The position numbers and the translations under genes are program-made. DNA of 32,169 nucleotides from Candidatus Caldarchaeales archaeon. GTDB lineage: Archaea; Thermoproteota; Nitrososphaeria_A; Caldarchaeales; Wolframiiraptoraceae. This document shows, one piece after another, positions 996 to 2,348 of the stretch. The notes beneath the pieces were generated by a model. That model did no database searches, was not told where the DNA came from, and worked only from the letters and a program-made list of their open reading frames with translations. The number at the start of each line of letters is the position of its first letter. Position 1 is the stretch's first letter. The stretch is taken from positions 1 through 32,169 of the forward strand of contig JBCNVN010000015.1 of the NCBI GenBank assembly GCA_039630055.1. Direction: 5' to 3'.

Positions 996-2348
996 ATGAA
1001 TAGATTGGCCATAGTAATGGTCCTGGCCATGGTAACCGTCTTCGCAAGTCTAAGCCAAGTCCATGGAGAAGCATATAACACAATAATAGTCGATGAGAAT
1101 CTTGAAGTCTCTCTATCATACCCTCCCGAAGTAAAGTTCGGCTCATGCTATACCTTCCGGTTTAAAGCTAAAGCCTTCGACACTCTTACAATAGATAAGA
1201 TCAAGCTCACAATAAAGATGTTCACAAATGGCTTGGCGGAGACATTGTACGATAAGGTTCTCATCAGTTCAGAGACAGTTACAAGCAGCTGGACGTTCAG
1301 TAAGAATATACAGATATGTATTCCTTCTCGACCTAAACCAGACCCATATCTTGAAGGGAAAATATACGTAGAATATAGTACAGATGATGATGATGATCCA
1401 ACTCTCTCAGCAGAATGGTATATGTCAACTGTAAGAGAGATGACATATGATGAACTAGCCTCTGAGCTAGAGGAAGCGGAGAGAGAGATTGAAGACTTAG
1501 AAGAGCTTATAAGAGACCTACAACTCCTTATAGAAGACCTAGAAGATGAGATAGAAAGCTTATCTAAAAACTATAATAAACTATCCTCCAGCTACGAATC
1601 TCTTAGTAATAATTACTTAAAGGTTCAAGAAGATTATAGGGAAATTCAAGAGAAATATAATAAACTGGAAGAAGATTATAAGAAGTTGAATGAAGAATAC
1701 GACAAACTCCTTATAGATTATGAAAAGCTTAGAACATCATATGAAAATCTGATAAAGAACAATGAGCAGCTTCAATCAAACTACGATTCACTAAGAGATG
1801 ACTACCGCTCACTATCTGATGAGTATAATAGGCTTCGAGGAATGCACCAAGACCTGACAGATAGATATAATGAGCTTAAAAGTAGATATGAATCGAGTAT
1901 AAATACTATTGGAAGACTTGAATCAACGATCAGCAATCTGGAAGAATCTGTAAGAGAGAAACAGCAGAAGATAGATGAGCTTAATCTAATCTATGCATCA
2001 ACAGCTAATGAGAACGCGTTGACCAAGAATATCTTATATGCTCAGACAGCGGCAGTAGCAGGTATCGGTATGAGCATATTCGTAATGAGTTTAAGAAGGA
2101 AGAAGATGCCTCCTCCACCTTCTACAGTTGAGCCTACAACTACACCTACGAGGGGAGAGGGAACCGAGAACTCTAAGAATGGAAAGATTCAGAAAGTATT
2201 ATCTGGTAGGCGGATAACTCTTCCAAGAGATGCCGTAGAAAAATTAAATATCAAAGAGGGAGGGAAAGTCATAGTCGAAGTTTATGAAGACTATGTCAAA
2301 GTCATACCGGTAAAAGAAGAAATATCAGAAAGTACAGATAAAGTCTAG
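996..2348 (+). CDS. Membrane-anchored coiled-coil stalk protein with C-terminal AbrB/MazE/SpoVT DNA-binding domain
   Basis: N-terminal signal peptide; beta-rich domain; heptad YxxL coiled coil (~1440-2030); hydrophobic helix ILYAQTAAVAGIGMSIFVMSL followed by RRKK; Pro/Thr linker; QKVLSGRRITLPRDAVEKLNIKEGGKVIVEV is an AbrB-type signature. Confidence 0.8.
   Translation: MNRLAIVMVLAMVTVFASLSQVHGEAYNTIIVDENLEVSLSYPPEVKFGSCYTFRFKAKAFDTLTIDKIKLTIKMFTNGLAETLYDKVLISSETVTSSWTFSKNIQICIPSRPKPDPYLEGKIYVEYSTDDDDDPTLSAEWYMSTVREMTYDELASELEEAEREIEDLEELIRDLQLLIEDLEDEIESLSKNYNKLSSSYESLSNNYLKVQEDYREIQEKYNKLEEDYKKLNEEYDKLLIDYEKLRTSYENLIKNNEQLQSNYDSLRDDYRSLSDEYNRLRGMHQDLTDRYNELKSRYESSINTIGRLESTISNLEESVREKQQKIDELNLIYASTANENALTKNILYAQTAAVAGIGMSIFVMSLRRKKMPPPPSTVEPTTTPTRGEGTENSKNGKIQKVLSGRRITLPRDAVEKLNIKEGGKVIVEVYEDYVKVIPVKEEISESTDKV

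Follow-up and report, generated by a model that had tools for sequence, protein, structure and literature searches.

Architecture of the head-stalk-AbrB gene

The stretch of DNA analysed here (the window, 32,169 nucleotides) carries close to its start an open reading frame (positions 996-2348) that begins with ATG and encodes 450 amino acids plus a stop codon. It lies on the forward strand, as do all of the features described below. The preliminary description of this sequence had divided the encoded protein into a signal peptide, a beta-rich domain, a coiled coil, one transmembrane (TM) helix, a linker and an AbrB-type domain, and we found all six parts in that order. The six-part architecture is not a chance arrangement, because it recurs in 18 of 19 database matches of near-equal length and in 51 genomes. 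Upstream of the gene, a conserved block (positions 951-977) ends about 19 nucleotides before the ATG. When eight upstream regions were aligned, the core of this block, TTAAGAGTTATTA, was nearly invariant in the six rows of the Geocrenenecus clade, and the position of the block makes it a likely BRE/TATA promoter region.

The predicted signal peptide (residues 1-24, positions 996-1067) combines a short, basic n-region with a hydrophobic core of 16 residues, and cleavage is predicted after VHG. Its assignment rests on hydropathy, which peaks at 2.27 over residues 4-22, and on the conservation of an AxA-like site at positions -3 and -1, present in 60 of 65 homologues across the order. The residues that follow (25-147, positions 1068-1436) are predicted to form an extracellular head with an Ig-like or arrestin-like fold. 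AlphaFold2, run with a 27-row alignment, modelled this region as a nine-stranded beta-sandwich (pLDDT 88.4, pTM 0.80), and the top Foldseek matches of the model were the arrestin N-lobe, Vps26, RhoGDI and ML-domain sandwiches, with TM-scores of 0.5-0.65 at about 11% identity. Two cysteines of the head, Cys51 and Cys108, are both kept in 65/65 homologues and are probably joined by a disulfide bond. The head matched no Pfam or NCBIfam family. When the head, pieces of the stalk and the Thermofilum relatives described below were compared with Pfam, NCBIfam and Atlas, only coiled-coil noise was returned; a match to DUF7491 reached 25.7 bits against a cut-off of 30, and the closest Atlas clusters were unnamed, with scores below 0.9. 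There are no N-glycosylation sequons in the 450-residue protein. The possibility that sequons are depleted was dropped, as the 27 homologues examined (41 sequons observed, 59.8 expected by shuffling) showed no consistent depletion.

The stalk (residues 146-334, positions 1431-1997) is made up of 27 heptads without interruption. Leucine occupies position d in 21 of the 27, position a is tyrosine in 16 and isoleucine in 7, and the YxxL motif occurs 12 times. In the full-length AlphaFold2 model, residues 151-335 form a single helix. The 27 unbroken heptads correspond to a rod of about 28 nm, which agrees with the 28-30 nm that had been proposed for the part outside the cell. Counting between alignment anchors, we found that the invariant R147 is separated from the TM anchor column by 190, 197 or 204 residues in all 64 sequences compared. 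The table of gap runs gave the same picture: gaps within the stalk are always 7 or 14 columns long, and they occur at six or more positions. Stalk length is thus quantised in whole heptads across the order, a property that we report here as new.

A conserved juxtamembrane segment, recognised in the alignments, connects the stalk to the membrane (residues 335-345, positions 1998-2030; E339 is invariant, L342 and T343 nearly so). The single TM helix (residues 346-366, positions 2031-2093) was located by hydropathy, with a Kyte-Doolittle peak of 1.71, and by alignment. Small residues abound in it, with A352 invariant and Q350, A353 and G358 nearly so. Directly after it comes RRKK, a basic stop-transfer sequence that would lie on the cytoplasmic side and that opens a low-complexity linker rich in proline and threonine (residues 367-396, positions 2094-2183). 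In 64/64 homologues, lysine and arginine are more numerous in the 15 residues after the TM helix than in the 15 before it (means 4.72 vs 1.47). Together, the signal peptide, the invariant cysteine pair of the head and this positive-inside charge point to a single-pass, type I topology with the AbrB domain in the cytoplasm, where the preliminary description had also placed it. Among 50 fused homologues, the linker varies between 18 and 62 residues (median 36) with a mean pairwise identity of 0.23, and its AlphaFold2 pLDDT falls below 50. A linker disordered in this way would be unable to pass on a conformational signal, and any regulation would therefore have to operate by clustering, sequestration or cleavage.

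At the C-terminal end lies a domain of the AbrB/MazE/SpoVT swapped-hairpin type (residues 397-441, positions 2184-2318), followed by a short acidic tail that is variable in alignments (residues 442-450 and the stop codon, positions 2319-2348). Pfam PF04014 matched residues 405-443 with 26.0 bits in the whole protein and reached 30.4 bits when the last 67 residues were searched, in both cases above the cut-off of 24.7; a distant homologue (L013) reached 37.3 bits. The NCBIfam model TIGR01439 scored 28.0 bits, just below its cut-off of 28.3. When a profile of 27 C-terminal sequences was compared with solved chains, modest matches were obtained to MazE (2mrn, E 2.6e-4), Sso7c4 (5itj/2l66, E 3e-4), AbrB (1z0r, E 9e-3) and SpoVT (2ro5, E 0.013). 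The match to PF04014 and those to solved MazE, Sso7c4 and AbrB uphold the AbrB assignment that had been made from the sequence. Residues Q399, L402, S403, G404, R405, R406, T408 and P410 are invariant, and the GRR that they include sits in the first hairpin loop. With a mean pairwise identity of 0.49 in the 50 fused homologues, against 0.33-0.38 for head, coil and TM helix, AbrB is the best-conserved domain of the protein, which is also a new observation. A search with residues 385-450 among proteins of 247-788 amino acids gave 11 matches, all of them members of the head-stalk-AbrB family. One further candidate, L030, proved to be only a small stand-alone AbrB protein.

Proteins of the AbrB superfamily bind DNA as swapped-hairpin dimers. 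Prediction of two copies of residues 340-450 gave a score of 0.43, with 0.00 for the best control, although AbrB/MazE dimers have been solved and the prediction may simply draw on those structures. In calibration, 20 of 30 proteins solved as pairs reached the mark of 0.42, as did 1 of 23 solved as single chains. The prediction runs share at least 72% of contacts with a partner pLDDT of at least 56, and the confident interface covers residues 394-439, leaving the TM helices outside it. Sso7c4, which is one of the two best matches among solved proteins, is a dimeric protein that binds and bends DNA (PMC5222340, PMC3159460). The two arginine positions named for its DNA binding (PMC5222340) align with Ser403 and Val414 of the present protein. 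A dimer of the AbrB domains would be expected to bind DNA.

Distribution and history of the fusion

Of the 76 genomes that represent the order Caldarchaeales ("Aigarchaeota"), 65 contain the head-stalk gene, always as one copy. In 51 of these 65 genomes, belonging to 11 genera, it is fused to AbrB as in the window. The preliminary description had allowed that the fusion might be an artefact of assembly or read-through. As far as sequence data can tell, the joining of two genes by misassembly, a frameshift or read-through is refuted as its source. Aside from its recurrence in 51 genomes, an independent 3,605-nucleotide metagenome contig covers positions 900-2600 in one piece, and positions 900-2245 are covered from a second DNA run (the contigs come from two DNA runs of one study); no RNA runs containing the gene were found. 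In addition, a search with residues 340-450 among proteins of 30-246 amino acids gave 36 candidates, none of which was a short protein with a TM helix and an AbrB domain. The fusion is genuine, and no case of stalk and AbrB as separate genes was found.

The 14 genomes in which the head-stalk gene lacks AbrB comprise the whole of genus g6 (10 genomes) together with 4 of the 6 of genus g4. No separate AbrB gene was found in these 14 genomes, and the missing domain appears to have been lost rather than encoded elsewhere. They are natural AbrB knock-outs; AbrB is therefore dispensable there, and the head-stalk-anchor part must have a function of its own. A gene tree built with FastTree requires one gain of AbrB and two losses. 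By this tree, the domain would have been gained once, at the base of Caldarchaeales, by an older archaeal surface protein composed of head, stalk and anchor, and would later have been lost twice.

Uncharacterised relatives with shorter stalks and no AbrB occur outside the order, in Thermofilum and other Thermoproteota; an example is the hypothetical protein WP_011752665 of T. pendens. Their heads are homologous to those of the Caldarchaeales proteins, with E-values of 1e-8 to 1e-15 against the head profile, and behind the head lie a coiled coil, a TM helix and a basic tail that is often poly-proline. They differ in being 300-400 amino acids long overall, in lacking both AbrB and the cysteine pair, and in having many sequons. 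An unnamed head-stalk-anchor family common to Caldarchaeales and Thermofilum is thereby defined.

Genes for NT5C-like, PUA and amidase proteins flank the stalk gene only in the Geocrenenecus/Benthortus clade, and in Wolframiiraptor radical-SAM genes take the flanking position instead. Across the compared loci there was no conserved neighbour or regulon that points to a target or partner. We also considered that the poly-proline tail could relate to an actin-like cytoskeleton, an idea that came from the distribution of crenactin, and rejected it on the distribution of Pfam Actin. Matches occur in 135 of 401 Thermoproteota genomes, among them 13/14 and 18/23 of the genomes of two families without the stalk gene (f10 and f13), and in 0/2 genomes of genus g7, which has it; bacterial controls match as well.

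Candidate roles of the protein

How archaea signal the condition of their envelope to the genome is poorly understood, and this protein is a compact candidate for such a link. It is encoded by a single gene in nearly every genome of one order, with a "ruler" on the outside and a putative DNA-binding domain on the inside. We tentatively infer that it acts as a transmembrane transcription regulator (TTR), with putative DNA binding and a putative ligand, and we give this role a little less than an even chance. It is favoured by the architecture and predicted topology, the AbrB assignment, the predicted dimer, the conservation of the AbrB domain, the heptad-exact stalk and the age of the fusion, and archaea offer a precedent in many other proteins that combine a TM helix with a DNA-binding domain (PMC10269533). 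Against it count the TIGR01439 score just under its cut-off, the position of the TM helices outside the confident interface, the disordered linker, the 14 genomes without AbrB, the lack of a conserved neighbour and the two unmatched arginine positions of Sso7c4. After cleavage of the signal peptide, the head would sit on the end of a rod anchored by one TM helix, a rigid coiled coil of 27 heptads with parallel chains in register, and the flexible proline-rich linker of about 30 residues would carry the AbrB-type domain in the cytoplasm. The coiled coil would bring two AbrB domains together into a swapped-hairpin dimer, which could bind chromosomal DNA while still tethered to the membrane. The availability or clustering of AbrB would then depend on the contacts made by the head, which the rod would keep at a constant distance from the membrane; one such contact could be the lower face of the S-layer canopy.

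In a stronger form, which we regard as unlikely, the protein would be a physical link that joins the S-layer canopy to the chromosome over a fixed length. At 28-30 nm from the membrane the head would touch the lattice from below, the rod would hold head and TM helix in register, and clustering or loss of contact would alter the hold of the tethered AbrB dimers on DNA. If true, such a link would be a sensor of envelope integrity or of cell size, or a device for positioning the nucleoid, without a described archaeal counterpart.

Other roles can be read from the same parts. The protein could be chiefly structural, with an AbrB dimer of little sequence preference that fastens the nucleoid to the membrane or holds it at a set place in the envelope, in the service of chromosome segregation or organisation and not of gene control. 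This is unlikely but has several points in its favour, in that the chromatin-like Sso7c4 is among the best solved matches (PMC5222340), the gene belongs to the near-universal core of the order, in single copy and with no conserved regulon neighbour, and a rigid, length-quantised stalk fits a structural role. However, 14 of 65 genomes have lost AbrB and we found nothing that replaces it there, which fits poorly with an essential part in segregation. Somewhat less probable again is that the protein is an inactive membrane precursor, in which a signal at the head or stalk would lead to site-1 and intramembrane cleavage and free an AbrB fragment to reach DNA. The unusual conservation of the TM and juxtamembrane segments, with small, helix-weakening residues (A352; Q350, A353, G358), would suit such cleavage, as would a flexible linker unable to transmit conformational signals, but no protease gene is linked and the juxtamembrane motif is kept in AbrB-less relatives too, and is hence independent of the cargo. 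We consider it a distinctly poor prospect that the AbrB domain, instead of binding DNA, works like an antitoxin or as an adaptor and brings a cytoplasmic partner to the membrane. MazE antitoxins are the top names in both Pfam and the PDB, and the DNA-binding arginine positions of Sso7c4 are not matched one-for-one; yet only about nine residues follow the domain, which leaves no toxin-binding tail, no toxin gene is adjacent, and members that bind DNA typically have a basic loop like the invariant one seen here.

It is also improbable, though less so than a purely protein-binding AbrB domain, that the protein is a SlaB-type stalk or anchor of the S-layer, whose head docks to the lattice and whose coiled coil determines how wide the space beneath it is, with AbrB as an add-on. 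Its architecture had been likened to that of SlaB, and the likeness holds for the order of the parts: both have a signal peptide, an N-terminal beta-sandwich region, a long C-terminal coiled coil and a TM anchor, forming a rod of tens of nanometres on the membrane (PMC10903991). The tightly conserved stalk length is in keeping with such a role, and about 28 nm plus the head falls within reported S-layer heights (about 30 nm in Sulfolobus, 37 nm in Pyrobaculum). The likeness does not extend to sequence kinship or to the number of sandwiches. The SlaB model NF040788, which is narrow and a weak test in that S. acidocaldarius itself scores under its cut-off of 700 bits, matched only the coiled coil (residues 170-238, 30.9 bits) and gave 17.9 bits at best in a scan of the genome itself. 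SlaB has three beta-sandwiches where the present protein has one (residues 25-147), and 14 predicted N-glycosylation sequons where it has none (PMC10903991); its helix is 132 residues long as compared with about 185-189, and some five cytoplasmic residues stand in place of 84 with a folded domain. We take the resemblance to be architectural only, without apparent homology. SlaB is, moreover, a trimer, which docks a SlaA-type lattice protein, and a trimeric stalk would not match the obligate-dimer fold of AbrB. A 2026 preprint gives Caldarchaeales, including Wolframiiraptor, a PySLP-like S-layer protein with its own stalk and TM helix, and reports self-anchored proteins of this kind in Thermofilum as well, which also speaks against this role. 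These two groups are the ones that hold the head-stalk family. In the source genome (92% complete) we found no open reading frame longer than 1,206 amino acids, and so no PySLP-like giant; those that combine a signal peptide with a C-terminal TM helix span 265-865 amino acids.

Relation to known membrane regulators and AbrB proteins

The role that we favour, that of a transmembrane transcription regulator, has described precedents. In classical TTRs the winged-helix or HTH domain is N-terminal and the topology is type II, and in the ToxR/CadC family this domain is a winged helix of the OmpR type. No such domain was matched by Pfam in the present protein. Its DNA-binding domain is of the AbrB type and C-terminal, and it differs further from classical TTRs in a predicted type I ectodomain that depends on a signal peptide and in a rod of about 28 nm. 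What it shares with ToxR, CadC and TcpP, and with the archaeal ArnR/ArnR1, is the presence of a TM helix and a DNA-binding domain on one polypeptide and the expectation that the latter acts from the membrane (PMC10269533, PMC6396743). [quoted passage not shown] The main text of this census contains no occurrence of AbrB or MazE, and its supplementary tables of more than 100 DNA-binding domain types may include them (PMC10269533). The preliminary description had known of no described system with this architecture. This stands for the exact build, which we did not find in print, but not for the general class, which is described.

By Pfam and by the profile of solved chains, the C-terminal domain belongs to the same family as B. 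subtilis AbrB, E. coli MazE and Sulfolobus Sso7c4, and it would share with them a symmetric, intertwined homodimer that is here only predicted. Soluble AbrB, MazE and SpoVT proteins are free in the cytoplasm and about 50-95 amino acids long, whereas here the domain ends a 450-residue membrane protein, to which it is joined by a flexible tether.

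Architecture of the head-stalk-AbrB protein

The open frame at positions 996-2348 is real, with its parts arranged as in the preliminary description, and all of them are encoded on the + strand. Its 450-aa product begins with a signal peptide (aa 1-24; short basic start, 16-residue hydrophobic core, Kyte-Doolittle 2.27), in which a small-x-small site precedes a conserved E/G-A/G-Y/F. AlphaFold2, used with a 27-sequence alignment, modeled the following head (aa 25-147) as a nine-strand β-sandwich (pLDDT 88.4, pTM 0.80). The stalk (aa 146-334) consists of 27 stutter-free heptads, with Leu at 21/27 d positions and Tyr or Ile at 16/27 and 7/27 a positions. 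The full-length AlphaFold2 model renders it as a single helix (151-335, ~185 residues). At the ~0.148 nm per residue of coiled coils, the stalk is ~28 nm long. The only hydrophobic segment besides the signal peptide is the transmembrane (TM) helix (aa 346-366), directly followed by RRKK and a Pro/Thr-rich stretch. The proposed identity of the C-terminus was borne out, as aa 405-443 matched Pfam PF04014 (MazE_antitoxin/AbrB; cut-off 24.7 bits) at 26.0 bits with the whole protein and 30.4 bits with the last 67 residues alone, and a profile of 27 C-terminal parts retrieved solved MazE, Sso7c4, AbrB and SpoVT chains (E 2.6e-4 to 0.013). The NCBIfam AbrB domain model scored 0.3 bits under its cut-off.

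That the AbrB fusion is an artefact is next to impossible. An independent hot-spring metagenome assembly contains nucleotides 900-2600 in one piece, on a 3,605-nt contig that differs from the window by 11 bases and a 3-base deletion in a poly-Asp run; another run from that study covers 900-2245, and both runs are DNA. Moreover, the whole architecture recurred in 18 of 19 near-length database matches (35-99% identity). With one genome scanned per species, 26 full-length homologues were recovered; those with names fall in Wolframiiraptoraceae (Geocrenenecus, Wolframiiraptor, Benthortus) or carry the label Aigarchaeota or Nitrososphaeria. The strain variant seen in run X1 is 3 bases shorter at the poly-Asp run (window 1383, aa 129-133), which yields the 449-aa database form P0002.

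Three features together support a predicted type I topology, and with it the cytoplasmic AbrB domain initially proposed. A head Cys pair, which fits an extracytoplasmic disulfide, was present in 65/65 members of the order; Lys and Arg were more numerous in the 15 residues after the TM helix than in the 15 before it in 64/64 sequences (4.72 vs 1.47); and 60/65 carried an AxA-like signal-peptide site. Both cysteines were missing in the Thermofilum-type relatives examined.

Among 50 fused homologues, mean pairwise identity was 0.49 for the AbrB domain, 0.38 for the juxtamembrane and TM part, 0.36 for the head, 0.33 for the coil and 0.23 for the linker, which is 18 to 62 residues long and disordered in the model. 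Alignments showed Q399, L402, S403, G404, R405, R406, T408 and P410 to be invariant in the AbrB domain. The distance from an invariant Arg at the head end to a fixed TM column was always 190, 197 or 204 residues (21, 27 and 16 of 64 sequences), and all stalk gap runs in the MAFFT alignment spanned 7 or 14 columns, at six or more different positions. Since these heptad-exact lengths and gaps persist at such low coil identity, selection has preserved the heptad phase all the way between head and membrane, which would imply an uninterrupted, in-register coiled coil and a fixed head-TM geometry. Chemoreceptor signalling domains fall into heptad-exact length classes too. The stalk core (a = Ile/Tyr, d = Leu) resembles the Ile/Leu pattern of GCN4 variants, which favours dimers.

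Foldseek searches of the PDB matched the head to generic Ig-like/arrestin-type sandwiches (arrestin N-lobe, ARRDC3, Vps26, RhoGDI and ML domains) with TM-scores of 0.5-0.65 at about 11% identity, and these model-based matches would place it in a fold class without indicating what it does. The head is not covered by any Pfam or NCBIfam family, and its nearest Atlas clusters were unnamed archaeal proteins scoring below 0.9, the level above which clusters count as more than leads. Two copies of aa 340-450 with alignment were predicted to form a homodimer, scoring 0.43 against 0.00 for the best control, just past a mark of 0.42 that was reached by 20/30 pair-solved and 1/23 single-chain calibration proteins; because AbrB and MazE dimers are already solved, this prediction indicates resemblance to them and may reflect structures that the predictor had already learned. 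Contact agreement between runs was at least 72%, partner pLDDT was at least 56, and the confident, symmetric interface (aa 394-439) corresponded to the AbrB domain, with the TM helices outside it.

Distribution and origin of the AbrB domain

A head-only profile found exactly one copy in 65/76 genomes of the order Caldarchaeales, with the gene present in 38/43 high-quality genomes and 12/15 genera and in 0/4 genomes of one family. Each of the 39 loci outside the four close genera was scored for AbrB; counted together with the close genera, which contribute 26 genes including the one in the own genome, 51/65 head-stalk genes carried the domain. In one of the 51 (L068), an N run interrupts the gene and AbrB lies in the next frame. 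The 14 AbrB-less genes comprised 10/10 from genus g6, whose proteins end soon after the TM helix with a basic segment and poly-Pro, and 4/6 from genus g4. One g4 orthologue in a 99%-complete genome (L031, G059:C6:58800-60900) ends inside the TM helix at 345 aa, which may reflect either gene decay to a pseudogene or a frameshift introduced by sequencing. No AbrB frame was found within about 800 nt downstream of AbrB-less genes, five AbrB-less genomes held only generic AbrB paralogues (20-22 bits), and none of 36 database candidates was a short TM+AbrB protein. Therefore, AbrB was lost rather than split off.

Beyond Caldarchaeales, the head profile matched 12 of the ~325 Thermoproteota genomes sampled, nine of them in one family (9/14) and all within open frames of 338-438 aa. 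An exhaustive HMM search returned 37 proteins at E<=1e-3, some of which lack AbrB and measure 300-400 aa, one example being a hypothetical protein of Thermofilum pendens. In four distant head relatives (database proteins P0049, P0052, P0053 and P0055), a long low-complexity segment rich in Tyr and Ser separates the head from a short coiled coil and TM helix. An outgroup-rooted FastTree tree without bootstrap was built from 75 rows (65 from the order and 10 from the outgroup) and restricted to the head, the stalk and the TM helix. In it, order members formed a single clade (97) and g6 stood beside the AbrB-bearing genus g7 (97); on this tree, AbrB history takes three changes, one gain and two losses. 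Several AbrB-less relatives also have a basic, poly-Pro tail right after the TM helix, and AbrB was therefore appended to a pre-existing cytoplasmic tail.

The own genome holds four more AbrB-domain matches (contigs C1, C80, C45 and C3), at the start of 320-370-aa open frames that may be AbrB-PhoU-type fusions; similar matches were seen in AbrB-less relatives.

Flanking sequence and genes

The gene is flanked on its upstream side by one for a universal archaeal PUA-domain protein (window 413-919; TIGR03684, 127 bits vs cut-off 120.6). The intergenic region contains TGTAGC/TGTAC repeats (928-947) and a block (951-977) that hardly varies among six related species whose proteins share only 56-67% identity; judged from position, this region is probably the promoter, perhaps with an operator. 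Downstream of the gene lies a 49-aa acidic frame on the + strand (2360-2509), its end overlapping by 4 nt the start of an AtzE/GatA-like amidase gene (2506-3903). By tblastn it occupies the same place in two homologous loci (L004, 68% identity; L008, 47%); it had zero Pfam and NCBIfam matches and may represent a small subunit of the amidase, comparable to AtzG or GatC. An aldehyde:ferredoxin oxidoreductase-like gene (3970-5835) fits the tungsten-dependent Wolframiiraptoraceae lineage.

Possible roles and relation to known systems

As the linker is disordered, twist or piston movement of the rod is not transmissible, and control of the AbrB dimer would therefore proceed by clustering or pairing of rods, by holding of DNA at the membrane, or by cleavage that would release AbrB. 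Our leading reading, held at a little under an even chance, is a membrane-tethered regulator with predicted DNA-binding activity. Against it, AbrB is dispensable in 14 genomes, and neighbourhood comparison found no regulon or partner gene linked to the gene. In addition, the two arginines that PMC5222340 links to DNA binding by Sso7c4 align in the profile with Ser403 and Val414; Arg405 and Arg406, both invariant, come two and three residues later in that loop. A non-regulatory nucleoid tether is a minority possibility; proteolytic release of the domain is unlikely, and its use as a protein adaptor is quite improbable.

An S-layer strut is also improbable. The likeness to SlaB-type stalks claimed earlier is one of architecture only: the NCBIfam SlaB model touched the coiled coil only, at 30.9 bits (17.9 in a genome scan) against a cut-off of 700, a weak test, the model being so narrow that at cut-off it misses even S. 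acidocaldarius. PMC10903991 describes the S. acidocaldarius SlaB as a trimer-forming protein of 475 aa with three β-sandwich domains, a 132-residue helix, TM 448-470 and 14 predicted sequons, whereas our protein has one sandwich, a ~185-residue helix, an 84-residue cytoplasmic part and zero sequons. A 2026 preprint (10.64898/2026.08.21.746120) describes giant, PySLP-like S-layer proteins, rich in Ig domains and each equipped with a stalk, a TM and a basic tail, from Caldarchaeales (W. allenii among them) and from Thermofilum pendens. This head-stalk family occurs in just these two groups, and thus a separate SlaB-type anchor would not be required there. In the own genome (92%-complete, 80 contigs), the longest ORF is 1,206 aa and no giant Ig-rich S-layer protein was visible. 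The same preprint places the Pyrobaculum canopy 37 nm out, and the 28-nm rod plus head could reach the underside of a PySLP-like canopy.

Our literature searches found neither the head-stalk-AbrB family nor any membrane-anchored AbrB protein described, and public annotations read AbrB-family DNA-binding protein, PrlF-type regulator/antitoxin or hypothetical. The census of transmembrane transcription regulators (TTRs; PMC10269533), in its main text, does not mention AbrB/MazE; it defines TTRs by a TM segment plus a DNA-binding domain, and counts 1,384 proteins in 367/404 archaeal species, 56% of all TTRs being single-pass, with >100 DNA-binding domain types. The predicted TM helix and AbrB-type domain place our protein within this definition, and we class it as a putative TTR whose scaffold comes from an archaeal family of head-stalk-anchor proteins that has no name yet.
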